Shown: positions 11,215 to 48,885, numbered from the stretch's first letter. The stretch: DNA of 64,000 nt from a candidate division WOR-1 bacterium RIFOXYB2_FULL_46_45 (GCA_001771585.1 MEUE01000001.1:681984-745983), one strand, 5' to 3'. Notes: a model not told the origin generated them from the sequence alone. Numbers and translations are program-made.

Positions 11215-11231
11215 TATGCTATAATTCCTTT

Positions 11232-13710: not shown

Positions 13711-14534
13711 CGCAAAAAACCGGTCAGCGGACTGGAGGCGGAGGCGGTATCGGAAGAAATTGCTAAACCCGCCTCAAAACCCTCTCGTCCGGCTTCAACC
13801 GCTTTTTTGAAAGCCTGCGCCATTAATTTTGGATTAGGAGCGATCGCAATCGCGGTATTGACCAAAACGGCATCGGCGCCAAGTTCCATTGCAAGTGCGG
13901 CGTGAGATGGGGCGCCAAGGCCAGCATCAACAACAACCGGAACTCTGGCTTGTTCTATGATAATTTTGATTGAGTCAATAGTTTTTATCCCTTTGTGCGA
14001 CCCGATGGGTGAACCAAGCGGCATAACCGTGGCGCAGCCGGCATCCTGTAATTTCAAGGCCAGGACCGGATCGGCATTGATATATGGAAGGACGACAAAG
14101 CCCTCTTTGACTAAAATTTCGGCCGCCTTTAAGGTTTCGATCGGATCGGGGAGGAGATAATTTGGATCGGGAGTCACTTCCAGTTTTATCCAGTTACTTA
14201 ATCCTGATGCTTTCGCCAGGCGGGCGATGCGGACCGCCTCTTCGGCGCTTCTGGCGCCGGAAGTATTGGGAAGAAAAAGATATTTTTTGCGGTCAATCGC
14301 TTCGATAAAATTATCTTGCGGGTTATCCATATCGACTCTGCGCAGGGCCACGGTTACAATTTCCGCTCCCGACGCTTCAATTGCTTCAAGCATCGTTTTG
14401 GTGTTTGGAAATTTACCGGTCCCCAAAAAAAGGCGGGATTTTATTTCGCGGCCGGAAATTATGAGCGGTGGGGACTGGGAGCACCCCACACTAAAGTGTG
14501 GGGAATTGGGGTTTGAAAGCACTTTTTCCGTCAT
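13707..14534 (-). CDS. thiG: thiazole synthase ThiG (with unusual ~25-aa N-terminal extension containing a REP palindrome)
   Basis: …[36 protein letters not shown]… matches ThiG (E. coli …[35 protein letters not shown]…). The first ATG (14534) adds [25 protein letters not shown], and this stretch includes the REP palindrome at 14484-14504. Confidence 0.85.
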
Positions 14535-14640
14535 ATTTATATTATAACACCAAACTACTAGCCTCTTGCTGAAAAACCTATGTTAGGGGGTGGATAGGTT
14601 CTACGGTAAGAAGAAATACCCCACATTTAAATGTGGGGTA
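14484..14640. repeat. two REP-like palindromes (CCCCACA-N6-TGTGGGG) on the 3' side of the RAYT gene
   Basis: 14484-14504 ccccacactaaagtgtgggg; 14619-14638 ccccacatttaaatgtgggg (extended taccccacatttaaatgtggggta). Confidence 0.8.
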
Positions 14641-14657
14641 TTTCCCCCAAGTGTTGG

Positions 14658-15037
14658 CTATATTAGGTGCAAATCCTTCTTCTGGTTGCTTACATATCGG
14701 CTCACGGTAACTAATGCCTCTTCAGGAACTTCCTTAAAGGCATACTTTCTGGCCCAAAGATTATTAATTTTCATTTGTTCCTTTAAAATTGGGAAGGTCT
14801 TAAATATTCTTCTCGCCGAAATGCCTTTCAAAAACTTTACGGCTTTGGGTAGTTCATCTCTATTAGTCAATTCTAATAAAAGATGGGCATGATCAGGTAA
14901 TGTTCCATGCGCTACTAATCGAATGTTTTTATTTTTTGAAATTTCTTCAAAAAAGATGCTAATTTCTTTATCAATCTCGTCTATCAAAATCCGCCTCTTT
15001 CTTTTCGTTTGAAACCAAACATGAAAGTATTTCATTT
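14658..15037 (-). CDS. REP-associated tyrosine transposase (RAYT), IS200/IS605 TnpA-like Y1 HuH enzyme
   Basis: MKYFHVWFQTKRKRRILIDE…LVAHGTLPDHAHLLLELTN…LPKAVKFLKGISARRIF…SRYVSNQKK. The HuH motif (HAHLLL) and the catalytic Tyr in the Y-x-x-NQ motif match IS200 TnpA/RAYT. Start moved to MKYFHV; the upstream 47 codons of the tabulated ORF run through REP palindromes. Flanked by REP-like palindromes on both sides. Confidence 0.75.
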
Positions 15038-15089
15038 TTCTCGTCTCCTTTTTTTTCCAAAACACCTTAGGGGACTGTCGCATAATGCA

Positions 15090-15355
15090 CCCCGGACTAA
15101 AGTCCGGGGAATTTTTGGCGGCTTCCTCCTCGTGAATTCCCCACATTTTAATGTGGGGTTGCCACAAAATATTCATTTCGCGGCAGACACCTTAGCTCAA
15201 ATACCCCACAATTAATTGTGGGGTATTTGATATCGGTAATTTCTAATATCCTTAGCAATTTTGCCGCCAGAAATATGGGGAACCATAAAAAAATCCCCAG
15301 ATTTTATTCTGGGGGACATTCCTAGACCGTAAATTCCCCATAATTTATTATGGGG
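15090..15355. repeat. five REP-like palindromes on the 5' side of the RAYT gene
   Basis: 15090-15109 ccccggactaaagtccgggg; 15139-15158 ccccacattttaatgtgggg; 15204-15223 ccccacaattaattgtgggg; 15295-15314 ccccagattttattctgggg; 15336-15355 ccccataatttattatgggg. All share the consensus CCCC-R-N(8-10)-Y-GGGG with an AT-rich loop. Confidence 0.8.
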
Positions 15356-23379: not shown

Positions 23380-23410
23380 GATTAATTAAAGCAATCTTCA
23401 TTCCAGAGTT

Positions 23411-23452
23411 ATTATTTTATGTTATTATATGCCGGTTAGCAAGGAGGGAATT
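23411..23452 (+). promoter_or_regulatory. conserved ~37-bp leader motif ending in RBS (copy 1), shared with the P-type ATPase leader
   Basis: ttttatgttattatatgccggttagcaaggaggga is 31/35 identical to ttttatgttattctgttccggctagcaaggaggga at 28781-28817. Confidence 0.35.
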
Positions 23453-23455
23453 ATT

Positions 23456-24974: not shown

Positions 24975-25103
24975 TACAACCCTCTTTTTATGCCCGTAGT
25001 ATATGCTAATTATGTGCTCAAAGCAAGAGATTCATGCGACAGATAAGCCTTGCCCCTTAAAGCATTTTAATATAAAATTAAGCGTTAAAAAAAGGGGGAC
25101 TCG

Positions 25104-26138
25104 ATGAAAAAATTAGTTGTTATTTGCGTCCTGTTTTGCCTCATCGCTCCGCAAGCCTTCACCTGCACCGATTTTCAGATCAAAGCAAAAGATGACAGCG
25201 TTGTCATCGGCCGTTCGATGGAATTTCCGGCCGACCTGAAATCGAACGTGGTCGTCGTCCCGCGCGGGATTCAGAATTCAAAATACGCCTTTATAGCGAT
25301 TGACGCGCTGGAGATAAAAAACTGCTATGTGGACGGTTTTAATGAAAAAGGGCTCTCCTTTGACGGACTGATGTTTACGGGAGCGGAGTATCAGGCTCCT
25401 ATTCCCGGAAAGGTTGTATATCTAAACAATCTTACTTCCTGGGTACTCGGCAATTTCGCCACAGTGGATGAAGTAAAAAAAGCTCTGCCGCAGATTACAA
25501 TTTCTGAATCCCCGATTAAAAAAGTTAAAGACTTAGGAATGCACTTTGCCGTCCATGATGCGCTGGGTAAAAACCTGGTGATCGAATGCATAAACGGGGA
25601 AATAAAAGTTTACGACAATCCCATTGGAGTTATGACCAACCGGCCGGAATTCGACTGGCACATCAACAATCTTCGCAATTATATCAATCTTGACTCGCGC
25701 GACAAAAAACCAAAGACCATCAACGGCCAAAAGATCGAGCCGACCGGCGTCGGCAGCGGGATGCTGGGCCTTCCCGGTGACTGGACGCCGCCGTCAAGGT
25801 TTGTGCGGACCGCTCTTTGTCTAAACGCCGCGCTACAACCGAAAAATTCGGCGGAAGCGGTGAACCTGGCGGAGCACATCTTGAATATAGTTGATATCCC
25901 CAAGGGAGTTGTAAAAGAGCCGACCGCATTCCCCTTTGTCGACCTGTACGGGAACGCCCAATGGGTGATAATAAAAGATTTGACCAACAAAGTCTTATAT
26001 TATAAAACTTATGACAATACCGCCTGGAAAACAATTGATCTGAAAAAATTCAACCTCGATCCCGGAAATCCGATAAAATCAGTATCGATTGGGGAAAAGG
26101 ACCCGGCCTGTCTTGACATGAGCGGGAAATTAAAATAA
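25104..26138 (+). CDS. choloylglycine hydrolase / penicillin V acylase family (Ntn linear-amide C-N hydrolase), secreted
   Basis: Signal peptide MKKLVVICVLFCLIAPQAF followed immediately by a Cys (TCTDFQIK). This Cys would be the N-terminal nucleophile, the hallmark of the CBAH family. Confidence 0.7.
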   Translation: MKKLVVICVLFCLIAPQAFTCTDFQIKAKDDSVVIGRSMEFPADLKSNVVVVPRGIQNSKYAFIAIDALEIKNCYVDGFNEKGLSFDGLMFTGAEYQAPIPGKVVYLNNLTSWVLGNFATVDEVKKALPQITISESPIKKVKDLGMHFAVHDALGKNLVIECINGEIKVYDNPIGVMTNRPEFDWHINNLRNYINLDSRDKKPKTINGQKIEPTGVGSGMLGLPGDWTPPSRFVRTALCLNAALQPKNSAEAVNLAEHILNIVDIPKGVVKEPTAFPFVDLYGNAQWVIIKDLTNKVLYYKTYDNTAWKTIDLKKFNLDPGNPIKSVSIGEKDPACLDMSGKLK

Positions 26139-26178
26139 CTGAGGATTTTAATGCTCCCTGCCTTTGCCGGTCATTGTA

Positions 26179-26265
26179 TTTTCTACACATACAGCGTCTG
26201 CGCGGAATAAGCAAACTCTATGCCCCTCTTTTCAAATTCTTCCTTAATCGCGAAATTAATTTCCT
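26179..26265 (-). pseudogene. orphan copy of the 3' end of mscS (~87 bp, ~92% identical to 27709-27795), interrupted by a stop
   Basis: Direct sequence comparison: ttttctacacatacagcgtctgcgcggaataagcaaactctatgcccctcttttcaaattcttccttaatcgcgaaattaatttcct versus the native mscS 3' end. Confidence 0.6.
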
Positions 26266-26291
26266 ATCAAATATCAAAAGCCGTATCCAAA

Positions 26292-26373
26292 GATTATTCT
26301 TCTTTGGGTTGGACTCTTTGCCATAGTGGAAGTCGAAAAAAAGATTAGGAAGCTGTCTTTCAATTCTTGGCCC
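26292..26373 (+). pseudogene. orphan copy of the 3' end of the P-type ATPase gene (~80 bp, matches 31494-31585 with a 9-bp deletion removing the stop)
   Basis: gattattcttctttgggttggactctttgccatagtggaagtcgaaaaaaagattaggaagctgtctttcaattcttggccc versus the native ATPase 3' end. Confidence 0.6.
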
Positions 26374-26382
26374 AAGCAACTG

Positions 26383-27666
26383 CTACAGGTTTTCATCGAG
26401 CCAGTTATAGATCTTTTCGTTGGATATCATGGACGCGCCAAGTTGGCAGTGTTCCTCGGCCCCTTCTTCGCGGGTAAAAAGCAGATATTTTTTAGGGCAG
26501 GTCAGCGCGTTGAACAATTTCTTGGATTGTCCGGGCAGGTCCTTATCGTCTTGTGAATCAACAACAAGCATCTTGCATTTTATTTTTGAGGCAATCCCCT
26601 TCATCGTGTAGGGTCTTGTGGCTTTGATAAACCCGGACGGTGTCTTTACCCCAAAAACCCACATGCCGTTTCCGATCGCCCAACGCAAGCCAGGATTTTT
26701 TTTCATAACCCTATACATTTGGGCGTCTATCTCTTTAACGGCCTTGGGATTGTCCAGTTGTTTCTCAAAACCTGCCGGCTGCCGCTTGACCATGTTCTCA
26801 TGGAAATCATATATTCCGCCGTTGGCGATACAGACCTTTATCCTGGGTTCAAAAGCCGCCGCCCGCGGCGCAAGATAGCCGCCAAAGCTTATTCCCATCA
26901 GCGCGATGCGGTCCGGGTCCGTCTCTTTTTGCGCGACGGCAAAATCTATGACCGGCGTGACAACTTTTTCCCAGTCATGGCGGAAAGGTAGCTTCTGCTC
27001 CCGTATCACTTCTCCCTGTCCCGGCCCTTCAAAAACCAGGATATTGTAACCACGCTTTAAAGCGGCAAAGCCCACCTGCGGGACAAGTTCTTCCCCTGTT
27101 CCGTCAAAGCCGGTCTGAATGATCAACAAGGGGAGTTTTTTTCCGGTATTGTCCACTGTCCCAAAATATCCCGGCAGAGTCGTTCTTTCATACGGTATCC
27201 TTACCGCGCGAATAACGGGTTTTTCAATTTTATCGATGGCCTTCAGGAACATGTCTCGGCTTTTTCTCCAGGCCTTCATGATCCGCGGGTCGGACGGGTC
27301 TTTGTGGAGGAAGAATTCCGCCGAACGGTAATAATTTGAAGCGCGCAAATAAGCTTCACTCGCGCTTATTCTGTGTCCTTTGGACGCGAACTCATCGGCT
27401 GCGGATTCGGCCTGTTTGGCGGTCCTGGCCCATTCATCGTACCAGCTGTCGTCATCGCCTTCCTTAATACGGTAGCCGGTCTTTAAGCATTCTCCGATGT
27501 CGGAGGCGCCACCCGGCGCCGCACCCAATGCCCTCAAAAGCTGGAAAGAATACTGATTATCCTTGAAGATAATGTTCGCGGCAAAAATATCTGGGGCAAA
27601 AGCCAAAGATGCGATAAGGACCAAAATAAAACAGGCGGTTCTTTTCATGGTTTTTTTCTGTTTCAT
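26383..27666 (-). CDS. secreted alpha/beta-hydrolase (dienelactone hydrolase / S9 peptidase-like fold)
   Basis: Signal peptide MKQKKTMKRTACFILVLIASLAFA. Nucleophile elbow GISFGGYLA (GxSxG). Start chosen at MKQ; the tabulated start adds 18 non-signal residues. Confidence 0.7.
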   Translation of the reverse strand: MKQKKTMKRTACFILVLIASLAFAPDIFAANIIFKDNQYSFQLLRALGAAPGGASDIGECLKTGYRIKEGDDDSWYDEWARTAKQAESAADEFASKGHRISASEAYLRASNYYRSAEFFLHKDPSDPRIMKAWRKSRDMFLKAIDKIEKPVIRAVRIPYERTTLPGYFGTVDNTGKKLPLLIIQTGFDGTGEELVPQVGFAALKRGYNILVFEGPGQGEVIREQKLPFRHDWEKVVTPVIDFAVAQKETDPDRIALMGISFGGYLAPRAAAFEPRIKVCIANGGIYDFHENMVKRQPAGFEKQLDNPKAVKEIDAQMYRVMKKNPGLRWAIGNGMWVFGVKTPSGFIKATRPYTMKGIASKIKCKMLVVDSQDDKDLPGQSKKLFNALTCPKKYLLFTREEGAEEHCQLGASMISNEKIYNWLDENL

Positions 27667-27703
27667 TATTTTATTGATGGAATTATAACATATAAGCCGA
27701 AAA

Positions 27704-28756
27704 TTATGTTTTCTGCACATACAGCGTCTGCGTGGGATAAGCGAACTCTATGCCCCGCTTTTCAAATTCTTCCTTAACCGCGAAATTAATCTCCTGCCGG
27801 ACATCCATATATTTGTTGTAATCGGGACTTAAAATAAAATATACGACTTCAAATATAAGGCTAAAATCCCCATAACTAAAGAAATGAGCCCGGTCAAAAG
27901 CCGTATCTTTAGTCTCCCTAATAACCTTTTCAATGATCTTTGGGAGCTCCTTCAGCTGGTCAAGGGAAGTCTGATATGTCACGCCCAAACTGAATACGAC
28001 ACGTCTTTTCTCCATGCGCTTATAATTACGAACACGCGAATCCGTAAGATCGGTATTGGAAAAAATCAATTGCTCACCGCCCAAACTGCGCAAACGGGTC
28101 GTTTTAATCCCGATATATTCGACCGAACCCATAAAATCACCGATAACTATAAAATCTCCCAACTTAAAGGGCCGGTCAAAAACTATCGAGAAATAGCCGA
28201 AGAAATCTTTAAGCAAGGCCTGCGCGGCTATCGCAACGGCGATACCCCCGATACCCAAACCGGCAATCATTGTCGTAACCTTAAAACCGATATTATCCAA
28301 AAAAATTATAAGGGCAAGCGACCATATCAAAAATTTCACCACGTTCAACATTCCGTCAAGACTACGCGCCAATGCGGGATCTTCCTGCTTTTTGGTTAAA
28401 TACATCTTTAAGCTGTAACCCAACAACAAAATAATTATACGTGCCGAAAAAAAAGTAATCACGGCCAATTGCAGAACGTTAATTACGCTATCTAACCCTG
28501 CGGGCAATTTTAAAATTTTTGAGGCCAAATAAAAACAGGTAAGGTACAAGACCGGCACGACAATTTTTTCAAGAATTGTTGCCAGCAAATCATCAAGCGT
28601 TGTTGCCGTTGTTTCGGAGAATTTCTTAAGGCGCTTGACAAAGAAATAAGCGACAACCTTTACGGTCAATAAACCAAACAGCAGCGCCATTACAAAAACA
28701 AGATAATCCAAGACCTGATTGCCAAAGAATACTTGATCTAAAATTTTTGGTTCCAT
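27704..28756 (-). CDS. mechanosensitive ion channel, MscS family
   Basis: Three N-terminal TM helices, then a conserved MscS beta-domain (…GDFIVIGDFMGSVEYIGIKTTRLRSLGGEQLIFSNTDL…). Confidence 0.85.
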   Translation of the reverse strand: MEPKILDQVFFGNQVLDYLVFVMALLFGLLTVKVVAYFFVKRLKKFSETTATTLDDLLATILEKIVVPVLYLTCFYLASKILKLPAGLDSVINVLQLAVITFFSARIIILLLGYSLKMYLTKKQEDPALARSLDGMLNVVKFLIWSLALIIFLDNIGFKVTTMIAGLGIGGIAVAIAAQALLKDFFGYFSIVFDRPFKLGDFIVIGDFMGSVEYIGIKTTRLRSLGGEQLIFSNTDLTDSRVRNYKRMEKRRVVFSLGVTYQTSLDQLKELPKIIEKVIRETKDTAFDRAHFFSYGDFSLIFEVVYFILSPDYNKYMDVRQEINFAVKEEFEKRGIEFAYPTQTLYVQKT

Positions 28757-28780
28757 CTTTTAATTTTTCTCCTTTTTATC

Positions 28781-28817
28781 ATTTTATGTTATTCTGTTCC
28801 GGCTAGCAAGGAGGGAG
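28781..28817 (+). promoter_or_regulatory. conserved ~37-bp leader motif ending in RBS (copy 2), followed by a putative 11-codon uORF (MRFPFKTIPSM, 28834-28869) upstream of the P-type ATPase
   Basis: See copy 1 at 23411-23452. The ATG at 28834 lies about 16 nt after the GGAGGG. The uORF stop is 12 nt before the ATPase start. Confidence 0.3.
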
Positions 28818-28881
28818 TTGTTTTTTTGCCCAATGCGGTTCCCTTTCAAAACAATCCCGAGTATGTGATAATTAATAATCG

Positions 28882-31566
28882 ATGTTAAAAATTGCTACTG
28901 AATTTTATGCCGAATCGGCCGTTGAAGCCGTTTCCTTGCTGGAAACCGATTCGGAAAAAGGCTTAACCGCGGAAGAAGTCAAACGGCGGCTGGAAGAATA
29001 TGGCCGGAACCTGATTACTCCGGCTAAAAATAAGCCGGCCTGGTTAAGATTTATTTCGCAATTTAGCCAGCCTTTGGTCTATATCCTGGTAATAACTTCT
29101 CTAATTACTCTTTTTCTAAACGAAAGACTGGAGTCCGCGGTAATCTTTGGAGTGGTTTTAATTAATGCTTTTGTTGGTTATGTACAAGAAGCAAAGGCTC
29201 TCCAGGCGCTCGAAGCTTTGGCTAAAAGCCTAAAAATCCAGGTTCAGGTGATTAGAAACGGCCAAAAAAGACGGGTCCCCTCGGAAGAGGTTGTTCCCGG
29301 AGATATTGTTTTGGTGGCTTCCGGCGATAAGATCGCCGCCGATATGCGGCTAATTCAAGCGAAAGAACTAAGAGTGAACGAATCGACCTTGACGGGAGAA
29401 TCCTTGCCGGTGGATAAGAATGTGGCGGTTATGCCGGCGGATACGGGATTGGCGGATCGGACAAATATGCTTTACGCCTCCACGTTAGTGTCCTTTGGTT
29501 CCGGTAGAGCGGTGGTGACCGAGACCGGGGATCGTTCCGAGGTGGGGAGGATCGCTCGGCTAGTCTCCTCGGCCAGTGATTTGGATACTCCGCTGACTAA
29601 AAAGATTTCTCGCTTTAGCCAGTTACTATTATATGTAATATTTTTCCTTTCTCTTGTGGTTTTTGTGGTAGGAATTTTTCGGGGCAATTCCGCTTTGGAT
29701 ATGTTCATGGCGGCGGTCGCTTTGGCCGTATCGGCGATTCCTGAAGGGATGCCGGCCGCGGTTACAATTACTCTGGCAATCGGGGTCTCCCGCATGGCTA
29801 AGCGCAAAGCGATCATCAGAAAACTTCCGGCGGTTGAAACCCTGGGCAGTACCAGTATCATTTGTTCCGATAAGACGGGGACACTGACTGAAAATCAAAT
29901 GACCGTGCAGACGATTCTTGCCGATGATCGGGAATATCAGGTTCTTGGCAATGGCTACCAACCCGAAGGGGAAATCAGGCTAAAAGAGGAACCGGTCGCC
30001 GAGGCGCCTTTCGCGACTCCTTTGTATGAATGTCTTAAGGCCGGCTTGTTATGTAATGATAGCCAGATTGTGAAAAAGTCGTCGCTCTATGAGGCGGAAG
30101 GGGATCCAACGGAAGCGGCCTTGCTGGTAGCGGCCGGCAAAATTAAGCCTTTTTCCCAAGAACAGATTTTAGAGCCGCGCCTTGACGCGCTGCCTTTTGA
30201 ATCGGCCTTCAATTATATGGCCACCTTGCATCAAGGTGCGGAGAATAATATTGTTTATATAAAGGGATCGGTAGAAAAGATTTTATCCTGTTCCGTTAAT
30301 CAGCTTCAAACAGACGGCAGTGTAAAAGAATTACAGCCGGAGCATATTACCCAACAGGCGGAAGTGATTGCGGCCCGGGGCTTGAGAGTAATTGCTTTTG
30401 CTAAAATCAGTACTCATAAAAATAGTTTGGAGCGTGCCGATATTGCCGGAGCTACTTTTTTGGGATTACAGGGAATGATCGATCCCCCCAGAGTCGAAGC
30501 GATACGGGCAATTCAAGACTGTTATCGGGCCGGGATTGAGGTGAAGATGATCACAGGAGACCATCTCCTTACCGCCAAAGCGATTGCCAAACAGATGGGT
30601 TTTTCCTCCCGGGACAGGGAAGAGATAATGGCCGTATCCGGCAAACAGCTCGCTCAACTCAATGACGGAGAATTTGATAAGGTGGCTAAGGAGGCTGTCG
30701 TTTTTGCCCGGGTTACGCCGGAACAAAAACTACGGCTGGTCAAAGCGCTGCAAAAGCAAGGGGCGATTGTGGCCATGACCGGCGATGGAGTAAACGATGC
30801 CCCGGCGTTAAAACAGGCCGATATCGGTATTGCTATGGGGTTGGCCGGAACAGAAACCGCCAAAGAAGCGGCGGACATGATTTTGACCGATGACAACTTT
30901 GCCTCGATCCACTCTGCGGTCGAAGAAGGCCGTTGTGTCTATGACAACTTAAGAAAATTTATTTTATGGACTATCCCTACCAACCTGGCAGAATCTCTGG
31001 CGGTAATTTTTGCCGTTTTTTTAGGCACACTGCTGCCGGTCTTGCCGGTCCAGCTGTTATGGATCAATATGACTACCGCGGTATTTTTGGGAATGATGAT
31101 CGCCTTTGAGCCCAAAGAAGAGGAGACAATGTCGCGACCGCCACTAGCGCCTAATCTTCCTATCTTAACCGGGGAGATGCTGCTAAGAACCCTATATTTT
31201 GGCGGCTTATTGGCGATTGGAATGTACGGCTTATTTTATTACGAATTATCCCAGGGAGCCTCAATTCAAATGGCTCGGACAATTGCCGCCACAACTTTGA
31301 TTATGGGAGAAACCGCCTATCTGCTTAATTGCCGCTCGTTGTCCAGATCGATGTTTTCTATTGGCCTTTTTACCAACCCTTTTATTTGGGCGGGTATTTC
31401 CCTGATGATCGGCTTGCAATTGCTTTTTATTTATCAGCCGGCAATGCAGCTCTTTTTTAACTCCAGTCCTTTGGGAGTTGGCTCCTGGTCAAGGATTATT
31501 ATTCTTTGCATTGGACTCTTTGCCATAGTGGAAGCAGAAAAAAAGATTAGGAAGCTGTTTCCCTGA
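28882..31566 (+). CDS. cation-transporting P-type ATPase (type II, Ca2+/Mg2+-ATPase-like)
   Basis: ICSDKTGTLTENQMTV (phosphorylation site), MITGDHLLTAKAIA, MTGDGVNDAPALKQADIGIAMG, 10 TM segments. Confidence 0.9.
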   Translation: MLKIATEFYAESAVEAVSLLETDSEKGLTAEEVKRRLEEYGRNLITPAKNKPAWLRFISQFSQPLVYILVITSLITLFLNERLESAVIFGVVLINAFVGYVQEAKALQALEALAKSLKIQVQVIRNGQKRRVPSEEVVPGDIVLVASGDKIAADMRLIQAKELRVNESTLTGESLPVDKNVAVMPADTGLADRTNMLYASTLVSFGSGRAVVTETGDRSEVGRIARLVSSASDLDTPLTKKISRFSQLLLYVIFFLSLVVFVVGIFRGNSALDMFMAAVALAVSAIPEGMPAAVTITLAIGVSRMAKRKAIIRKLPAVETLGSTSIICSDKTGTLTENQMTVQTILADDREYQVLGNGYQPEGEIRLKEEPVAEAPFATPLYECLKAGLLCNDSQIVKKSSLYEAEGDPTEAALLVAAGKIKPFSQEQILEPRLDALPFESAFNYMATLHQGAENNIVYIKGSVEKILSCSVNQLQTDGSVKELQPEHITQQAEVIAARGLRVIAFAKISTHKNSLERADIAGATFLGLQGMIDPPRVEAIRAIQDCYRAGIEVKMITGDHLLTAKAIAKQMGFSSRDREEIMAVSGKQLAQLNDGEFDKVAKEAVVFARVTPEQKLRLVKALQKQGAIVAMTGDGVNDAPALKQADIGIAMGLAGTETAKEAADMILTDDNFASIHSAVEEGRCVYDNLRKFILWTIPTNLAESLAVIFAVFLGTLLPVLPVQLLWINMTTAVFLGMMIAFEPKEEETMSRPPLAPNLPILTGEMLLRTLYFGGLLAIGMYGLFYYELSQGASIQMARTIAATTLIMGETAYLLNCRSLSRSMFSIGLFTNPFIWAGISLMIGLQLLFIYQPAMQLFFNSSPLGVGSWSRIIILCIGLFAIVEAEKKIRKLFP

Positions 31567-32464
31567 ATCTTTCAATTCTTGGCCCTTCGGGCTCTTTCGT
31601 TTTTTTACCGATCGGCAGAACTCCGGACAAATCCCCAATCACATTCACCAGGTCGGAATCGGATGGAACGATGATCTTGGCATTGCCCTGCAAGGAGACT
31701 TCCAATGCCTGAAGCTTCCTCAACAACTGGGCGTTACCGATAAAATATTTTTCGGCCGCTTCATTGACCAGTTTTATGGCTTCGGCCTCTCCCTGCGCCT
31801 GCAGGATACGCGCCTGCCTGATCCCTTCCGCCTGTTTGATGCTGGCCCTTTTTTCCCCGTCCGCCACAGTCTCTCTGGCTGTCGCGAAATCAACGGCCGC
31901 GATTTTCTCGTTCTCCGCTTTGACGACTTTGTTCATCGTTTCTTGGACATCTTTAGGCGGGTCGATCTCTTTTAGCTCCGTCCTGACGATATCAATTCCC
32001 CAGCTGTTTGTTTCTTCCTTAAGCGTTTTATGAAGCTCCGAATTGATCTTGCCTCTTTCGCTGTTCGCGGATTTTAAAGTCAGCGTCCCGATAATGTTTC
32101 TCAAGGTCGTTCGCGCGAGATTGACTATCTGGTATTGGTAATCATTGACGTGGTATTGCGAGTTCTTGACGCTGGCCTCATCCGGGTTAACCTTAAAATA
32201 GACCTGCGCGTCGACCCGGGCGTTCAAATTGTCGTTGGTAATTATTTCCTGCGGTTCGGCATCGACCATTTGTTCCGTAATGTTTACAAAGATCAGGTTC
32301 TCAATAACCGGAAGGATCCAGTTTAACCCCGGGGACGCGAACCGATGATATTTTCCCAGCCTTTCGATCAAGCCCCTCTGTGTCGGCCTGATAACGCGTA
32401 TTCCCAGCAAACAAACGACAACCCCCGCCAAAACAATATAAGCTATAATTACCATATCATCCAT
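31547..32464 (-). CDS. SPFH/band-7 domain protein (stomatin/prohibitin/HflK-C-like)
   Basis: N-terminal TM, SPFH core (…QRGLIERLGKYHRFASPGLNWILP…), then a coiled-coil A/E/Q-rich tail. Confidence 0.85.
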   Translation of the reverse strand: MDDMVIIAYIVLAGVVVCLLGIRVIRPTQRGLIERLGKYHRFASPGLNWILPVIENLIFVNITEQMVDAEPQEIITNDNLNARVDAQVYFKVNPDEASVKNSQYHVNDYQYQIVNLARTTLRNIIGTLTLKSANSERGKINSELHKTLKEETNSWGIDIVRTELKEIDPPKDVQETMNKVVKAENEKIAAVDFATARETVADGEKRASIKQAEGIRQARILQAQGEAEAIKLVNEAAEKYFIGNAQLLRKLQALEVSLQGNAKIIVPSDSDLVNVIGDLSGVLPIGKKTKEPEGPRIERFRETAS

Positions 32465-32503
32465 CTCCTTTTTTTGCCGTTAAAAAAATCAATTGCTTCT
32501 TGC

Positions 32504-32570
32504 CCCAAGCACCCTCTACAGGTTTTCATTAAGCCGGTTGTTCTCTTGATGGAATTATAACATATAAGCC
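32504..32570 (-). pseudogene. remnant of the alpha/beta-hydrolase locus: last 8 codons + stop of a hydrolase-like gene (N-R-L-N-E-N-L-*) fused to the hydrolase 5' leader sequence (TTGATGGAATTATAACATATAAGCC)
   Basis: 32516-32539 ctacaggttttcattaagccggtt matches 26383-26406 (21/24). 32546-32570 is identical to 27674-27698. Confidence 0.5.
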
Positions 32571-32612
32571 CCAAGCCGGACTCGGACCAATTGCTGGCTT
32601 TAGGCGGGATCA

Positions 32613-32621
32613 TGCTATAAT
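32613..32621 (+). promoter_or_regulatory. extended -10 promoter element TGCTATAAT, 8 nt before the ATG at 32629 (leaderless transcript likely)
   Basis: TGnTATAAT consensus. No room for an RBS before the ATG. Confidence 0.4.
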
Positions 32622-32628
32622 ATTAAAA

Positions 32629-32970
32629 ATGGAGATAATTAACAACCAAATTACCCCGGACAAACTTAAAACCATGGCAAAAAATAGGTTCGGCAACATG
32701 GTCAAGGCGGTCGTTGATATTGAAAACAAAACCATGGCGGTTGACGCCGAGTTCCACTCCGACCTTGAAGGATTAATGCTTCAAAATAGTTCTAAAAACG
32801 AAAATTTGTGGGGAATAAATATTTATCCCGAACTGGAAGACAGCGATCGGATCGAATTTGATTCGATGATCAACCTGCGTCCGGCGCAGAATAACCGAAC
32901 CCGCGGAGTTGAGAGCCCGGAAATCCGGGGAAAAATTATTTCCATTGTAAACAAACTGGTTCAAAAATGA
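32629..32970 (+). CDS. hypothetical small protein (113 aa)
   Basis: ORF with likely leaderless start. Translationally coupled (ATGA) to the next ORF. Confidence 0.5.
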   Translation: MEIINNQITPDKLKTMAKNRFGNMVKAVVDIENKTMAVDAEFHSDLEGLMLQNSSKNENLWGINIYPELEDSDRIEFDSMINLRPAQNNRTRGVESPEIRGKIISIVNKLVQK

Positions 32971-33299
32971 GTTTTCAGCATAAAGAAGCCGCCGCCGGCC
33001 GCTGGCAAAAGATGCCGCTCTCCGAACAGATGGCAAACATCGGCTCCGAGGTTGAACGGGCGATAAACTGGAAAAATAAAAACAATAAAGAATACAGCCG
33101 AACCGCTTTTGAGCGGGCTTTGGAACTTTTGGACTTAACCCTGGCCTGTTACAAAGAATATTCCAAGTTGAAAGAGCTGGCCAGGTTAAGGGAAGTGCTG
33201 GCCGATTATTTTGCTTTTGACAACACTTATAACTCTACGGATGAAAGCCTAAAAAAATATTTCCTCGCTTTCAATTACGCCGCCAGGCTGGGGCATTGA
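32967..33299 (+). CDS. hypothetical small protein (110 aa), helical
   Basis: Overlaps the upstream stop by 4 nt (ATGA). No family recognised. Confidence 0.5.
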   Translation: MSFQHKEAAAGRWQKMPLSEQMANIGSEVERAINWKNKNNKEYSRTAFERALELLDLTLACYKEYSKLKELARLREVLADYFAFDNTYNSTDESLKKYFLAFNYAARLGH

Positions 33300-33309
33300 G
33301 AAAAAAAAG

Positions 33310-33381
33310 CTCCCCGAGCTGGACTCGAACCAGCAACAACCTGATTAACAGTCAGGTGCTCTACCATTGAGCTATCGGGGA
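33310..33381 (-). tRNA. tRNA-Asn (anticodon GUU)
   Basis: Reverse complement folds as a cloverleaf: acceptor stem TCCCCGA/TCGGGGA, D-arm GCTC-AATGGTA-GAGC, anticodon stem CCTGA/TCAGG with loop CTGTTAA (GTT), T-arm GCTGG-TTCGAGT-CCAGC, discriminator G. CCA is not encoded. A T-run follows on the minus strand. Confidence 0.9.
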
Positions 33382-33459
33382 ATGCCTCGACGATATATTA
33401 ATCCTACCAGAGAAAAAAGGGGCAGTCAATTGAACGCCGTGCTATAATTTATCCCGATT

Positions 33460-34296
33460 ATGAATAATTCTATGGTAAATCTTTTTATGCTTGCGTTTGT
33501 CCTCTCCAGCCTGTTCGGCACCGGCCTTTCTCTGACTCTTGGTGAAATAATCGCCCCGTTTAAAAAAACCAAACTGGTCTTCCTGGCGCTTTTGGGCAAC
33601 TTCTTGCTTATCCCGCTTTTGACTTATGCCCTGGCAATCTTTTTTAAGCTGGATGAGAGCTTGTTCAATGGTTTAATGCTCCTGGCATGTTGTGCGGGAG
33701 CTCCCTTTTTGCCGGCACTCGCAAATATCGCGGGCGGAAGCATTGCCTTCAGCGTCGGCCTGATGGTCCTGCTGATGCTGACAACTGTTTTTTATGCTCC
33801 AATCGTTCTTCCCCTCATAATCCCCAACGTCGCGATCAATCCGTTAAGCATTGCCTCTCCGTTAATTTTTTATATGCTCCTCCCTTTAATCGTCGGATTG
33901 ATTATTAAAGCGATTAAACCCGATCTGGCCGGTTTGATCCGCCCCTTCGCCAAGAAAATATCTTTGCTCAGCATAATTATTATGGCCGTCCTGTTCCTGT
34001 TTGCCGCTACCCCCGTTTTTATCGAAGCGTATGGCACCGGAGTTTACAATGCCATGCTTATTTTTGTTGCCGGATCGCTTCTGATCGGCTATCTTTTTAG
34101 CGGACTCAAAACCGCCGACAAATCTGTGATGGCTCTGGGGGCCGGACAGCGCAACATCATGGCCGCACTTCTTATCGCGGTAACCAATTTCTCCGATCAT
34201 AAAATTCTGGTGGTTATATTAATCGGCAGCTTGGTCGGATTTGTGGTCTTGTTTCCGGCCGCCGCCATATTTAAAAAATTACAACAACATGTTTAA
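33460..34296 (+). CDS. polytopic membrane transporter (bile acid:sodium symporter / AEC-like family)
   Basis: 8-10 TM helices. Contains …MLLACCAGAPF… reminiscent of the BASS/SBF family. Assignment is weak. Confidence 0.45.
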   Translation: MNNSMVNLFMLAFVLSSLFGTGLSLTLGEIIAPFKKTKLVFLALLGNFLLIPLLTYALAIFFKLDESLFNGLMLLACCAGAPFLPALANIAGGSIAFSVGLMVLLMLTTVFYAPIVLPLIIPNVAINPLSIASPLIFYMLLPLIVGLIIKAIKPDLAGLIRPFAKKISLLSIIIMAVLFLFAATPVFIEAYGTGVYNAMLIFVAGSLLIGYLFSGLKTADKSVMALGAGQRNIMAALLIAVTNFSDHKILVVILIGSLVGFVVLFPAAAIFKKLQQHV

Positions 34297-35842
34297 TAAA
34301 TACACGGACGCCGAAGTTTTGATCTCCAATAAGCAACTGGGTAAACCGGCGCTCAATGATCCGGTCATCCTTTCACGTTTATTTAAGCGCGTCACAAATA
34401 AAACGCTAAAGAATATCCGCCCGGACAAGCGCCTGGTTATCACCCGGCCTTTCCGTCCCGCATCCGAAACGCACGCCATAAACATCGTCAACCGCATCCT
34501 GGCGCTAAATGAAGCCGGAACCAAAGAGCTGCTTAAGCAAACACTCAAAGAGTTTGCCCACCGCCATAAAGATATTCGAACAATCTTGATGAATAATTAC
34601 CGCAAGATCGAAAGCCACATCAAAGAGCCGGCGGCGTTGTCGGAGGAAAGGAAACTCCTGCTCGGCTCTTGTTTTACGATGGAATATTCGATCGAATCGG
34701 CCGCCCTTTTTAATCCTTCAATCGTCATCTATCCCAAGCAGAATAATTTAAAGAAGGGGCAAACGCGCGTTATCCTAAGCTTCCGGGCAACCGGCGAAGG
34801 GCATATCTCCTCGATCGTTTTTCGCAGTGCCATAATCGATCGGGACAATTCAATCTTTCTGGAGTCGGTCAGTCCGTTTTTGGGCACCCCCGATATTGTC
34901 TTGAATTCGACCTACAATCGGGAACTTTTTAAGGCCAAACTGGAAGAGATGGGACAGTTAAGTGAAGCGGCCATGGCAATTTACCAACACCTGCCGACAA
35001 ACTTCACGCCGGAAGAAATGAGCGGGGCAATCAACGCCGTCCGCGACAGTAACGCCTTTACCACAGCCGACCTGGACGACACCATTATCCACATCAAGTG
35101 GCTGGCGGAATCTAATTATGAGATCTTTTTTCCGCACGGACAGTTGATCTCGGAAAGGGTTGTTTTTCCGATGTCGCAAAACGAGAGCAACGGAGTGGAA
35201 GACGCCCGTTTTGTCCGTTTTGTCGATGAGGACGGGAGCGCCACCTACTACGCAACTTACACCGCCTATAACGGCCGGGAAATCCTGCCGCAATTGATCG
35301 AAACAAAGGATTTTCACCGTTTTAAGATCTCAACCTTAAACGGACCGATGGCGCGCAATAAAGGAATGGCCCTTTTTCCGCGCAAGATCAACGGGAAGTA
35401 CGCCATGATCACCCGCAGCGACGGAGAAAACCTTTATTTGAGTTATTCCGACAACATCCATTTCTGGTTTGAAGGAGTAAAAATTGAAGCGCCGGAAAAT
35501 CCGTGGGAACTGATCCAGATCGGCAATTGCGGCTCTCCGCTTGAAACAAAAAAAGGGTGGATTTTATTGACTCACGGGGTCGGTCCGATGCGCAAATACT
35601 GCATCGGAGTTTCACTTTTGGATCTGAAAGACCCGTCAAAAACAATCGGAAGATTGGAAGAACCTTTGCTCGCGCCGCGGGAAGAGGAACGGGAGGGCTA
35701 TGTCCCCAATGTGGTTTACAGCTGCGGCTCAATAATTTTGAACGGAGAACTAATTGTCCCTTACGCTATTTCCGATTCCGAATCGCATCTGGCAAGCATT
35801 CCGGTTGACGAACTGCTTGAGAAACTTTTGAAGAAGAACTAA
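34289..35842 (+). CDS. GH130-like glycoside phosphorylase/hydrolase (beta-mannoside-active 5-bladed propeller) with ~230-aa N-terminal extension
   Basis: C-terminal 300 aa (…DARFVRFVDEDGSATYYATYTAYNG…MITRSDGENLYLSYSDN…GNCGSPLETKKGWILLTHGVG…PNVVYSCGSIILNGELIVPYA…) matches the GH130/DUF377 pattern. Start moved to MFNKY (34289). Confidence 0.65.
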   Translation: MFNKYTDAEVLISNKQLGKPALNDPVILSRLFKRVTNKTLKNIRPDKRLVITRPFRPASETHAINIVNRILALNEAGTKELLKQTLKEFAHRHKDIRTILMNNYRKIESHIKEPAALSEERKLLLGSCFTMEYSIESAALFNPSIVIYPKQNNLKKGQTRVILSFRATGEGHISSIVFRSAIIDRDNSIFLESVSPFLGTPDIVLNSTYNRELFKAKLEEMGQLSEAAMAIYQHLPTNFTPEEMSGAINAVRDSNAFTTADLDDTIIHIKWLAESNYEIFFPHGQLISERVVFPMSQNESNGVEDARFVRFVDEDGSATYYATYTAYNGREILPQLIETKDFHRFKISTLNGPMARNKGMALFPRKINGKYAMITRSDGENLYLSYSDNIHFWFEGVKIEAPENPWELIQIGNCGSPLETKKGWILLTHGVGPMRKYCIGVSLLDLKDPSKTIGRLEEPLLAPREEEREGYVPNVVYSCGSIILNGELIVPYAISDSESHLASIPVDELLEKLLKKN

Positions 35843-38076
35843 GCCGCGCCGGCAATCTCATATTCTTCGATCATCGCCAAAAGCGCAGTGAGAAAAGAGA
35901 CGGTGCTCTCTCCTCCCTGATTTAAGCTGACTCCCTCCGGCATCAAGCCGTCGGCACAGCCCTTGGTCTCGTGATCGTACAAAGACATCCCCATATCGTT
36001 ATCGCCGAGAAACCAGCCGAACGCCCGCCGCATCTTTTTTAAATATTCTTTTTCTTCGGTAACCCGATAGGCCGACTGATAGGCGAGCACCATCGCCGCC
36101 GCGTCAATCGGCTGCTGGTCAAAAGATGCTTTCTCCCCGCCCCTTTTATACCAGCCGCGGGAACCGACGATGGAAAGGCGGCCGTTTTTGGTAATGGCCT
36201 TTTCCAAAAACTCCAGCGCCTCTTTTGCAACCTTCAAATATTTTTCGTCGCGGAGAATTGAATAGGCCTGGAACAGAGCCATTGGCATAATGCCGTTATC
36301 GTAACAGATGATATCTTCAAACCAGTGCCAATCATCGGCTGAAACTTTGTCGTACAGCTCCAATAAATAATCGGCGCATTCGCGCAGTTTCGCGGTGACG
36401 CTTTCGTCTCCCTGATAACAGCGCAGATAAGAGACCAACCCCAGCATGGCCAAAGCTTTTCCGCGCAAATTCAGACCGTGGACGTGAGGCAGGGCCTTTT
36501 GAAAACATTCGTAGGCCAAAGAACGATAAGCGTTGCGCGGCGGCCTCCAGATGATATAGCCGAGCGCCCAAAGCGCCCGGCCGCAGGCATCGTCGGAGCC
36601 GGCTTCATCCAAAAAGCGGCGCTGGTAATCGATAAAGTTCCGGAAATGCCCGTTGGAATTTTGCATAAAATGGGTAAAGCTGAAATAAGTGGAAACCAGA
36701 TCCTTGGCATCTTCGTCGCGTAAAATAAAAAATGCCCAGGCGCACAGCATCAGCGCGCGGGAATTGTCGTCCAGGCAATAACCGGTATGCCGGTCGGGGA
36801 CAATATACTTGGCATGCTGGATCAGTCCGGTATCGTCGGTTAACCGCTTCAGGTGCGATAAATCAAACGACGGTTCCCGCAACAGCAGGGCCGGGTTTTT
36901 TAGAGTTAAAGCTCTTTTTGCCGCCGTTGACGCTGTTTGCTTAAATAGTTCCAGATATTTTTCGGAAACTTTTTCCCAGCGCATCTGCCGGCCGAATTTA
37001 TAGGTTTTATCGCGCAGTGACTTTAGTTTTCTTTTGTCCGACAACAAGTCGCGCAAGGACGAGGCCAAGCCCTCGCTGTCTCCAAAGTTTATCAAGCGCC
37101 CCCGCCCCTCGGCCAGGATCTCTTTGGCATACCAGTAAGGAGTGGAGAGGATGGCGTTCCCCGCCCCGATCGCGTAGGAGAGTGTTCCGCTGACAATCTG
37201 CGCCTCGTTTAAATATGGGGTGATATAAATATCGGCCGCCATCAGCCAGGCATAGAGCTCTTCCAGGCTGACAAAACGATTGTCAAAGATTACCTGTTCC
37301 TGCAATCCTAATTCTTCAACCAAAGCAACCAGCCCGGCCCGGTATTTTTCGCCGTATTCCCTAAGGACATTGGGGTGGGTTTTTCCCAAAACGACATAGA
37401 TCAATTGAGGAAACTCCCGAACCAGCTCCGGGAGAGCCTTGATGACCGTCTCAATCCCTTTGTTCGGACTGAGCAGTCCAAAGGTCAACAGCGTCTGCTT
37501 CCCTTCCACCTGAAAACGTTTTTTATAATGGCCGTTATTAAGCGCGGTAAAATCGGGAGTCCCGTGATAAAGCATCCTGATTTTTTCGGCCGGCACAGCG
37601 TAAACCTCTTTTAATAAAGTTACCGCCAGGTTACTCATCACTATAAGACAGCCGGCTCGCTTAGCCATCTCCTGAATAATTTTTTTCTGGTTGGGGGTCG
37701 GATTTTTTAGCACCGTGTGCAGAACCACCACCGCCGGCACGCTGAGATTCCCAATCAGGGATAGGATATAAATACCATCCCAGCCCCCGTAGATCCCGTA
37801 TTCGTGCTGGATACAAACGATGTCGGCATTGCTGGCATTTATAAAATTGGCCGCTTCAAAATAATCTTTCTGTTGCGTTTGCCTTATGGTGAATTCAACC
37901 CTGCGCGGATAAGCATAGCCTTTGTCCGTATCGTTTACGGCAAGCGCGAATACAAAGGAGCGGGGCGAAAGCAGCTTGGCGGTCGCTTCGCAAAGATCGG
38001 AGGTAAAAGTGGCGATACCGCAAATGCGCGGAGAATAATTCCCGACAAAGGCGACATTGAGCGTCGGCTTTAACAT
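35839..38076 (-). CDS. fusion protein: N-terminal GT4 (family 1) glycosyltransferase + C-terminal (alpha/alpha)6-barrel glycoside-hydrolase-like domain (GH63/GDB1/invertase-like)
   Basis: The N-terminal 390 aa has a GT-B layout (…LLSPNKGIETVIKAL…, …ADIYITPY…EAQIVSGTLSYAIGAGNAILSTP…). The C-terminal 350 aa is rich in W/aromatic residues, with helical-repeat acid/aromatic motifs typical of (α/α)6 glycosidases. The C-domain family is not certain. Confidence 0.6.
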   Translation of the reverse strand: MLKPTLNVAFVGNYSPRICGIATFTSDLCEATAKLLSPRSFVFALAVNDTDKGYAYPRRVEFTIRQTQQKDYFEAANFINASNADIVCIQHEYGIYGGWDGIYILSLIGNLSVPAVVVLHTVLKNPTPNQKKIIQEMAKRAGCLIVMSNLAVTLLKEVYAVPAEKIRMLYHGTPDFTALNNGHYKKRFQVEGKQTLLTFGLLSPNKGIETVIKALPELVREFPQLIYVVLGKTHPNVLREYGEKYRAGLVALVEELGLQEQVIFDNRFVSLEELYAWLMAADIYITPYLNEAQIVSGTLSYAIGAGNAILSTPYWYAKEILAEGRGRLINFGDSEGLASSLRDLLSDKRKLKSLRDKTYKFGRQMRWEKVSEKYLELFKQTASTAAKRALTLKNPALLLREPSFDLSHLKRLTDDTGLIQHAKYIVPDRHTGYCLDDNSRALMLCAWAFFILRDEDAKDLVSTYFSFTHFMQNSNGHFRNFIDYQRRFLDEAGSDDACGRALWALGYIIWRPPRNAYRSLAYECFQKALPHVHGLNLRGKALAMLGLVSYLRCYQGDESVTAKLRECADYLLELYDKVSADDWHWFEDIICYDNGIMPMALFQAYSILRDEKYLKVAKEALEFLEKAITKNGRLSIVGSRGWYKRGGEKASFDQQPIDAAAMVLAYQSAYRVTEEKEYLKKMRRAFGWFLGDNDMGMSLYDHETKGCADGLMPEGVSLNQGGESTVSFLTALLAMIEEYEIAGAA

Positions 38077-38909
38077 TTAGAAAGCAACTTGCAAACGTGG
38101 TTAGAGGACTCCTGTTCTTTATCTTTGTAGGCAGACAGGCGAGCTTTTAATTCTTTGAAATCAACCAGGTGTCCGTCAAATTCCGGTCCGTCAACACAAC
38201 CGAATTTAGTCTCTCCGCCGACGGTCACGCGGCAGACCCCGCACATCCCGGTCGCGTCAAGCATGATCGGATTTAAACTGACGATGGTTTTTATCTTTGC
38301 CGGAGCGGTAACGTGACAGACCGCTTCCATCATCGGGACCGGCCCGACCGCGTAGACCAGATTGATTTCTTTTGAGTGGTCCTCGATCATCTCTTTGAGA
38401 ATTTCGGTGACAAAACCCTTCTGGCCGCATGATCCGTCATCGGTGCATACTTTCACCTCACTACTTACTCCTCTCAACTTACTCTCCGATAACAATAACT
38501 CTTTTGATCTGGCTCCGATGATAGTTGTTACCTGATTTCCGGCTTCTTTATATGCCTTGATCGCCGGATAGATCTCGGCAATTCCGACTCCGCCGCCAAC
38601 CACCACCACATGCCCCACTTTATTGATATGCGCAGGAGTTCCAAGCGGGCCAAGCAGGTTTTTTATCTCATCTCCGACCTTAAGGCTTCCCAAAAGCTTG
38701 GTTGAAGCACCGGCTTCTTGAAATATAATAGTTACTTTTCCTGTATTTGTATCTTTGTCGGCAAGAGTCAGGGGAATCCGCTCCCCCTCTTCATTAATTC
38801 GAAGGACTACAAACTGTCCCGGCTTGGCCGATTTGGCGATTAGGGGGGCTTCAACCTCTATTTGAACGATATTTGAAGCAAGACGCTCTTTTGACAAGAT
38901 TTTAGGCAT
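38070..38909 (-). CDS. PyrK-family FAD/NAD(P)-binding oxidoreductase subunit with C-terminal [2Fe-2S] (sulfide dehydrogenase SudB / GltD-partner-like)
   Basis: FAD-binding PGQFVVLRI…RIPLTLAD, NAD-binding VVVVGGGVGIAEIYP, C-terminal Cys cluster GMCGVCRV…FGCVDGPEF. Confidence 0.8.
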   Translation of the reverse strand: MPKILSKERLASNIVQIEVEAPLIAKSAKPGQFVVLRINEEGERIPLTLADKDTNTGKVTIIFQEAGASTKLLGSLKVGDEIKNLLGPLGTPAHINKVGHVVVVGGGVGIAEIYPAIKAYKEAGNQVTTIIGARSKELLLSESKLRGVSSEVKVCTDDGSCGQKGFVTEILKEMIEDHSKEINLVYAVGPVPMMEAVCHVTAPAKIKTIVSLNPIMLDATGMCGVCRVTVGGETKFGCVDGPEFDGHLVDFKELKARLSAYKDKEQESSNHVCKLLSKC

Positions 38910-41835: not shown

Positions 41836-41924
41836 AATAATTCCTCCTTGCCTGCCGGTAGGCAGGCTTTGGGTAGAATTATAGCATAAGTTATGGTATA
41901 TTGTTGCAAAAGGAGGAAAGAAAA

Positions 41925-42113
41925 ATGGCAATTATTAATGTTGTGGTAGAAGACGGTTGCACCGGCTGCGGGTTATGCGAGCAGATCGCTCCGGAGGTTT
42001 TTGAAGTGTCGGACATCGCCAAGGTAAAAGACGGCGTAGTCGTCAGCCAATTCGAAAGTCAAATAAAAGAAGCGGCCGATTCCTGCCCGGTTTCGGTTAT
42101 TAAGATTTCGTAA
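41925..42113 (+). CDS. small ferredoxin (single [4Fe-4S]/[3Fe-4S] cluster type)
   Basis: [28 protein letters not shown]…[13 protein letters not shown] (CxxCxxC…CP). RBS AGGAGG 5 nt upstream of the ATG at 41925. Confidence 0.75.
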
Positions 42114-48831: not shown

Positions 48832-48837
48832 TATAAT

Positions 48838-48885
48838 TCCCTGTTTTCCCTGCTGCTCCCTATATTCCCTGCTCTTCCCTTTCAC
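48838..48885. repeat. second copy of the TTCCCTG-motif block (42-bp near-direct repeat of 48385-48425)
   Basis: ccctgttttccctgctgctccctatattccctgctcttccc versus ccctgttttccctgctactccctatattccctacccttccc. Confidence 0.7.

Follow-up and report, generated by a model that had tools for sequence, protein, structure and literature searches.

How do the 3' ends of two genes come to lie apart from the genes to which they belong, beside a third gene whose own two ends recur side by side elsewhere? We address this question for a locus on a groundwater WOR-1/Saganbacteria chromosome, of which a 64-kb stretch was analyzed (the window, from whose first letter all positions are counted) and the interval 25100-33300 (8.2 kb) was examined in detail. 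The locus contains mscS, a gene for a P-type cation ATPase, an SPFH/Band_7 gene, and an alpha/beta-hydrolase gene. A sequence-only reading had recognized four duplicated boundary segments among these genes, R1 to R4, and had offered two accounts of them: a tandem duplication followed by complementary deletions, or movement of the hydrolase and SPFH genes as cassettes. The history that we find to fit best, with a probability of about 0.62, is one in which a unit of 6,134 nt was duplicated in tandem and each gene was then lost from one of the two copies; in its favor, the repeated segments are collinear, the end of the unit is joined directly to its start, and the orphan copies have decayed without constraint.

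Four collinear repeat pairs and the history they suggest

Each of the four genes is present as one intact copy, and a search of the window found second copies only as fragments. The hydrolase gene (26383-27666, minus strand) encodes an S9/S15-like alpha/beta hydrolase of 427 amino acids (aa) with a signal-peptide-like N terminus, a product already in database records. mscS (27704-28756, minus strand) encodes 350 aa, the ATPase gene (28882-31566, plus strand) 894 aa, and the SPFH gene (31547-32464, minus strand) 305 aa, its final 13 codons lying within the right-hand copy of R2. Pfam bore out the gene identities proposed from the sequence, with matches to Peptidase_S9/S15/Abhydrolase_6, to MS_channel_1st/2nd/3rd, to E1-E2_ATPase and Cation_ATPase_N/C, and to Band_7, respectively.

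The repeat pairs consist of a left copy (a) and a right copy (b), one of which is attached to its gene while the other is an orphan. R1 is the 3' end of mscS on the minus strand: the native R1b (27696-27795) and the orphan R1a (26166-26265; the last 29 codons plus flank) are 88% identical over 100 nt and 92% identical over an 87-nt core. R2 is the 3' end of the ATPase gene on the plus strand, native in R2b (31490-31585, which runs 19 nt past the gene) and orphan in R2a (26288-26373; the last ~25 codons), where the antisense strand carries the final SPFH codons. These copies are 91% identical over 69 nt (26288-26356 and 31490-31558); next comes a 9-nt indel, TTCCCTGAA, which contains the ATPase stop codon and is missing from the orphan, and past it the match continues as an exact 18-mer (26356-26373 and 31568-31585). 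R3, on the minus strand, is the 3' end of the hydrolase gene, with seven codons, the stop codon, and a 19-nt tail in the native R3a (26364-26406), which is 84% identical over 43 nt to the orphan R3b (32497-32539). R4, also on the minus strand, comprises a putative hydrolase promoter and the start of the leader; the native R4a (27666-27698) and the orphan R4b (32538-32570) are 91% identical over 33 nt, including an exact 25-mer.

A repeat finder and BLAST thus placed all four pairs where the sequence-only reading had put them or slightly beyond, and the 92% identity of the R1 core and the identical R4 25-mer, both claimed there, held. In self-BLAST, R1 to R4 score 122, 95, 47, and 42 bits, all above the 38 bits reached by the highest-scoring direct repeat when the window was dinucleotide-shuffled 20 times. 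All pairs are direct, and the order R1a, R2a, R3a, R4a recurs in the same orientation as R1b, R2b, R3b, R4b. The unit reconstructed from them, earlier put at ~5 kb, measures 6,134 nt.

R4a ends at 27698 and R1b begins at 27696-27699, so that the two abut directly with a GCC(G) overlap. R3b passes directly into R4b and, relative to copy a, leaves a gap of 1,259 nt, about as long as the open reading frame (ORF); the gap extends from about the hydrolase start codon to seven codons short of its stop. R1a and R2a are 22 nt apart, and this spacing includes a 14-mer (26274-26287, minus strand) identical to mscS 27894-27907 and collinear with R1a. This tentative extra mscS relic (local E value, 0.23) suggests, weakly if taken alone, a stepwise deletion. 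Finally, the SPFH-specific segment (31586-32496) lies between the two copies of a 10-nt direct repeat that match at 9 of 10 positions and that the sequence-only reading did not report: TTCTTGGCCC ends R2b (31576-31585) and TTCTTGCCCC begins R3b (32497-32506). The orphan copy holds a single TTCTTGGCCC, at 26364-26373, which is the outcome expected of deletion between short direct repeats and also of target-site duplication. A terminator-like hairpin begins at 31581, in R2b.

From these junctions a course of events can be proposed. The ancestral order would have been mscS (-), ATPase (+), SPFH (-), and hydrolase (-), placed between a choloylglycine-hydrolase-family gene (CBAH; 25104-26138, plus strand) and a DUF5674 gene (32629-32970, plus strand), both assigned by Pfam. 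The duplicated unit would have spanned from just past the mscS stop codon to just upstream of the hydrolase promoter, and its head-to-tail duplication through illegitimate recombination at GCC microhomology would have created the R4a/R1b joint, which is read in the sequence at 27696-27699. From the left copy, one or more deletions would have taken mscS and the ATPase gene, of which R1a and R2a remain, and SPFH would have been lost through or beside the 10-nt direct repeat. The right copy would have lost the hydrolase ORF, with R3b fused to R4b as the result. The net result would be that each gene was kept once and that the hydrolase gene shifted from the right of the block to its left. After such complementary losses, any recombination between repeats still present would have cost the cell a gene that it needed, and this would have kept the rearranged order in place.

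Assembly error, which the sequence-only reading had named as a point to check, is excluded. The interval 25100-33300 is 100% identical, wherever it is covered, in all seven assembly loci fetched (JGI, ENA, NCBI, Logan), which derive from different pipelines. The whole 8.2 kb is spanned by five of them (two JGI contigs, one of which is 1.67 Mb long, and the ENA megahit, Logan, and NCBI GCA_001771695.1 assemblies); the other two are shorter contigs that include 5.8 and 4.3 kb of the interval. Among 23 contigs examined that carry the exact mscS protein, none is listed with a differing gene neighborhood. Moreover, the R4a/R1b joint has only 3 to 4 nt in common, which makes a repeat-driven chimera implausible.

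Decay, age, and a possible second use of the leftovers

The orphan copies are disabled in several ways. R1a, compared with outgroup C termini to polarize the changes, translates as EINFAIKEEFEKRGIEFAYSAQTLYV* where the native copy reads ...AVKEEFEKRGIEFAYPTQTLYVQKT*; it has a premature stop (CAG to TAG) and carries S and A at sites where ~40 homologs carry P and T. R2a has K, W, and V substitutions and, with TTCCCTGAA missing, no stop codon; ATPase homologs end as the native copy does. R3b reads NRLNENL* against the native NWLDENL*, in which W and D are conserved in homologs from unrelated contexts. The 18 coding differences, counted in register, fall on codon positions 1, 2, and 3 in the numbers 10, 3, and 5, and this lack of a third-position excess indicates that divergence was unconstrained. 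In the best explanation, the leftovers at 26166-26373 and 32497-32570 would be nonfunctional relics drifting neutrally, with the likely exception of R4b.

The possibility that the orphan spacer holds a functional RNA or a terminator was also considered and found no support. A search of Rfam at E ≤ 1 gave nothing at the gathering score and one chance-level match to a small nucleolar RNA (E = 0.48), folding gave z scores of -0.2 and -1.0 and hence no unusual structure, and a terminator scan lists none there. For annotation, the spacers 26139-26382 and 32465-32628 are best treated with caution, as containing pseudogene fragments and not small genes or RNAs.

As to age, orphan and intact copies differ at 28 of 263 positions (10.6%; Jukes-Cantor distance, 0.115). 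The hydrolase gene of the window and its closest homolog, on a contig designated L182 (90% aa identity), are separated by a synonymous divergence (dS) of 0.69 with a dN/dS ratio of 0.076. On this scale, the duplication is younger than that split. The event had been called recent; it does postdate the L182 split, but a divergence of this size is not recent in absolute terms. R1a is nearer to R1b (88 to 92%) than to any other mscS (82%), and an origin of the orphan copies within the lineage is what the sequences point to.

R4 calls for separate treatment. On the gene strand it reads GGCTTA-TATGTTATAAT-TCCATCAA, and its 11-nt core, TATGTTATAAT, occurs 10 times in the window with one mismatch allowed, against 0.8 expected (9519, 11215, 16757, 23418, 27682, 28862, 32554, 38915, 41878, and 61610), repeatedly just upstream of start codons. 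Judged by this enriched motif, which occupies 27682-27692 in R4a, R4 would be an extended -10 promoter. The two R4 copies match for 6 nt and 8 nt past the generic core, unlike the eight other sites, and are therefore true duplicates. About 90 nt separate R4b from the SPFH start codon downstream of it, and no other -10 element is evident over that distance. This relic promoter probably now drives SPFH, and the hydrolase and SPFH genes may formerly have been co-transcribed. If R4b does drive SPFH, this may explain both why R4 alone is identical at 25 of 25 positions and why the hydrolase deletion spared R4b. At 11215, 16757, 28862 (ahead of the ATPase gene), and 38915, the core lies 5 to 10 nt before an ATG, and such sites suggest that leaderless mRNAs could be common in this organism.

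Duplication and loss weighed against other histories

The comparison proposed by the sequence-only reading, in which related genomes would reveal the presence or absence of the hydrolase and SPFH genes at this locus, was carried out and recovered no syntenic relative. The hydrolase gene, mscS, and a 416-aa flanking gene all lie in other neighborhoods in every relative recovered (contexts compared: hydrolase homologs P0002-P0004 and P0271; mscS P0122 and P0128; 416-aa gene P0242, P0245, P0249, and P0252). Hydrolase homologs at 75 to 90% identity have different neighbors in each lineage, namely, mscL and a GTPase gene (L088/L182), a DUF6790 gene (L171), a ParE toxin-antitoxin pair (L166), or GyrI-like and RNase H genes (L170). 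The neighbors of mscS homologs at 77 to 81% are a DDE transposase gene or the genes of a trehalose/ATPase island, and the lineage-specific 416-aa gene, at 72 to 81%, likewise has other neighbors in those genomes. A search of genome contigs with the ATPase returned only homologs of 52 to 60% from other phyla, and a search of metagenomes with the hydrolase returned a single close contig, L088, which is short, along with many distant ones. In an 81% relative (L174), window positions ~24975-38100, from CBAH to a glycosyltransferase gene and including both the locus and a tRNA-Asn gene, are wholly replaced by toxin-antitoxin genes, an 891-aa ORF, and an HMGL-like gene between the same flanks (a DHODB-type gene and the 416-aa gene). 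A block swapped between the same flanks marks the interval as a plasticity zone, and in a region this plastic the ancestral order is not observable. As a separate observation, the hydrolase gene lies directly downstream of mscL in its closest relative (L088/L182) and of mscS in the window (27666-27704); the other ~75 hydrolase loci showed no neighboring MscL or MscS gene, save for a weak mscS-like neighbor in L107.

Several points weigh against duplication and loss. The ancestral order that it supposes is seen in no related genome recovered. L182 is homologous to the window from the R4 promoter to ~20 nt past the hydrolase stop codon, which is exactly the R4-to-R3 span, even though in L182 the gene has mscL upstream and a GTPase gene downstream; the outer ends of R3 and R4 thus fall within a few nucleotides of where this homology ends. 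By a rough estimate, random breakpoints would produce such a match in a few percent of cases, a mild coincidence made less surprising by tight gene packing and the need to keep a promoter. The 10-nt repeat around SPFH also fits insertion with target duplication. Selection or luck would have been needed for a perfect 6.1-kb tandem repeat, normally an unstable structure, to survive until the deletions. At one site, moreover, native mscS encodes V, whereas the orphan and almost every homolog encode I; the native copy has changed too, as would be expected if the event is old or if a diverged relative donated a copy.

A rival history is one in which two diverged, complementary haplotypes were merged by transformation or by a circular intermediate and unequal recombination. 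One lineage, which had already lost mscS, the ATPase gene, and SPFH, would have contributed R1a-R2a-R3a-hydrolase-R4a, and the other, which had lost the hydrolase gene, R1b-mscS-ATPase-R2b-SPFH-R3b-R4b; a Campbell-type crossover in the 25 nt of R4 or in R1 would have united them in tandem and made the gene set complete again. The exact R4 25-mer does flank the 4,872-nt mscS-ATPase-SPFH segment as a crossover site would, the ~10% divergence could be that between lineages, the V of native mscS is derived where the I of the orphan is ancestral, and mscS and the hydrolase gene occur in many contexts, some beside transposase or conjugation-type genes, in a region that the 81% relative has replaced. 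Even so, we regard such a merger as unlikely. It requires that an identical four-gene unit existed ancestrally and underwent the deletions already proposed, with an additional transfer on top, R1a is closest to R1b and not to another known mscS, and neither haplotype appears as a different neighborhood among the 23 contigs. A length of 25 nt is marginal for homologous recombination, and promoter function explains the conservation of R4. Purifying selection has left no sign in the divergence, but a merger would make relics of the orphans as well. An integrated islet would account for the orphan ends in yet another way, by entering mscS (or the ATPase gene) at its 3' end with a replacement for that end, as integrase-driven islands do in tRNA and protein-coding genes, and displacing the original. 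Orphan 3' ends 88 to 92% identical to the native ones flank the 1.5-kb segment from R1a to R1b, as orphan ends lie some distance from the intact end where integrative islands duplicate a gene's 3' end at their att sites, and the tRNA-Asn gene (33309-33381) lies 0.7 kb to the right of the locus. This is very improbable, in that the Pfam matches listed for genes called within ±10 kb include no integrase, transposase, or recombinase, the islet would itself hold an ATPase 3' end and nothing to mobilize it, and the R3b-R4b relic is left unexplained. Islands of this kind also differ from the locus in that four collinear segments from four genes are present here, and the stop, indel, and substitutions that disable the orphans fit decay and not att-site design. 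No clear compositional anomaly of the kind expected of a foreign island was found in the region. Least credible of all is that the segments are an assembly artifact or independent conserved motifs (terminators or promoters) instead of duplicated gene ends. R4 does contain a generic promoter motif, and an unrelated 47-nt promoter leader also recurs in the window; yet R1, R2, and R3 have coding, frame-consistent homology to intact genes, the identity of R4 exceeds the generic motif, and the seven concordant assemblies and the short joint speak against an artifact.

The cassette account was more specific. The hydrolase gene (promoter, ORF, and 20-nt tail) and SPFH would have moved as single-gene modules, leaving short direct repeats. 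The homology to L182 that runs exactly from promoter to tail in a different context agrees with this, as do the different neighborhoods of hydrolase homologs at 75 to 90%, the 10-nt repeat that brackets SPFH, and the want of a stop codon and promoter of its own in the SPFH segment. In addition, a 9-mer, GCCCCAAGC, at 32501-32509 and 32568-32576 flanks the R3b-R4b relic (shuffling p ~0.01), and an 8-mer, TTAAGAAG, occurs in L182 at ~1618-1625, upstream of the hydrolase promoter, and at 2965-2972, in the 3' tail (p ~0.07). These two repeats, however, use different parts of the tail and are of marginal significance, and no short direct repeats flank the module in three more distant homologs. The more distant homologs also have neither a common flanking element nor an attC-like element, and R1a, R2a, and their collinearity are left unexplained. 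The "empty" hydrolase site does not stand: R3b-R4b holds the last seven hydrolase codons and stop as well as the hydrolase promoter, and conserved codons with a promoter mark a gutted gene, not an unoccupied site. The locus resembles integron cassettes in that single genes are present or absent between fixed junctions, but it has no attC, attI, or IntI, no integrase in the ±10-kb Pfam listing, and no notable spacer structure; R3b is coding, and the hydrolase module has its own promoter. We therefore consider movement of single-gene modules improbable; on that view, R3b-R4b would be a module that had decayed or become "solo," and SPFH would have entered at GGCCC^AAGCA, duplicating 10 bp of its target. 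A shade less probable again is that Saganbacteria possess promoter-ORF-tail modules (extended -10, ~20-nt tail), here the secreted hydrolase gene and perhaps SPFH, that move by a recombinase acting in trans or by microhomology and leave 8- to 10-nt repeats; R3b-R4b would then be a gutted module and not a by-product of segmental duplication.

For SPFH itself the choice is closer. The proposal that it is an inserted cassette stands insofar as the flanking 10-nt direct repeat permits insertion, but deletion from the left copy is the more conventional account and is favored, by roughly 70:30 on mechanistic priors, because the segment has no transposase, no visible terminal repeats, and neither stop codon nor promoter of its own. 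Of the marks of a transposable element, the segment, whose sole content is the SPFH ORF, has the 10-nt direct repeat and lacks both transposase and terminal inverted repeats; the latter were not seen by eye at the segment ends, nor were any listed by the repeat search. The tails of SPFH homologs are variable after a conserved GVLPI and do not separate deletion from insertion.

Duplication followed by complementary loss therefore best accounts for the locus, and its closest parallel is found in another kind of genome. The tandem-duplication-random-loss (TDRL) model of gene order is established for animal mitochondrial genomes, where, as here, several genes are duplicated in tandem, one copy of each is lost, order changes without inversion, and intergenic spacers keep decaying remnants whose order is that of the lost genes. 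The present case differs in that it concerns a bacterial chromosome, a 6.1-kb unit, and four protein-coding genes with promoters, of which one relic promoter is seemingly re-used. Full-text searching of the literature turned up TDRL work on mitochondria and one paper on eukaryotic gene families, and nothing on bacteria, a result that does not prove bacterial cases to be undescribed. In bacteria, tandem duplication and amplification by illegitimate recombination, deletion between short direct repeats, and the usual collapse to a single copy by homologous recombination are all well known. The 3- to 4-nt microhomology (GCC/G), the kilobase-scale unit, the deletion at a 10-nt repeat with 9 of 10 positions matching, and the clearing of redundant copies by deletion bias all conform to that pattern; what differs here is that complementary losses fixed a new order and that relics lasted to ~10% divergence.

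The observation holds up and is tidy, though mechanistically conventional, and it reveals no new molecular machine or function. Its value lies in the record, in that every boundary of a duplicated four-gene block survives, an unusually complete trace of a change of gene order in a small (~1.67-Mb) genome. If duplication and loss is the correct history, the process familiar from mitochondria also works on bacterial chromosomes, and a relic promoter can be re-used by a neighboring gene. The locus would further indicate that gene relics can last to such divergence even in a compact genome, and it can serve as a worked example where the plasticity of candidate-phylum genomes is studied.

Other annotations and repeats in the window

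The ATPase gene at 28882-31566 is labeled "carbonate dehydratase" in the NCBI/UniRef records of this genome, an apparent misannotation. In the window, a promoter and Shine-Dalgarno (SD) leader, ATTTTATGTTATT..CCGG.TAGCAAGGAGGGA, occurs at 23409-23455, upstream of a gene for an 82-aa membrane protein, and at 28776-28822, in the divergent spacer between mscS and the ATPase gene, with 85% identity between the two and a looser copy at ~41878-41930. This 47-nt repeat was considered as a fifth boundary segment and rejected, being a recurrent promoter/SD leader of which a similar one lies at 41878; we take the copies for expression signals held in common and separate from the rearrangement.

Further repeats lie away from the locus. 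A 30-nt palindrome, AAATACCCCACATTTAAATGTGGGGTATTT, and its variants occur in five copies within 850 nt (14479-15319), and by appearance these are REP- or terminator-like hairpins. Another set lies at 48143-48440 and 48836-48881. About 18 GGGA(A/T) pentamers, phased every 9 to 10 nt, occupy 48143-48339, and about 10 TCCCT pentamers with the same phasing on the other strand follow at 48347-48437. A 44-nt block of this array (48375-48418) recurs at 48838-48881 with 93% identity, and the two TCCCT blocks flank a gene for a four-helix-bundle protein of the 23S_rRNA_IVP family (48427-48885, minus strand), which stands beside a prepilin-like gene.

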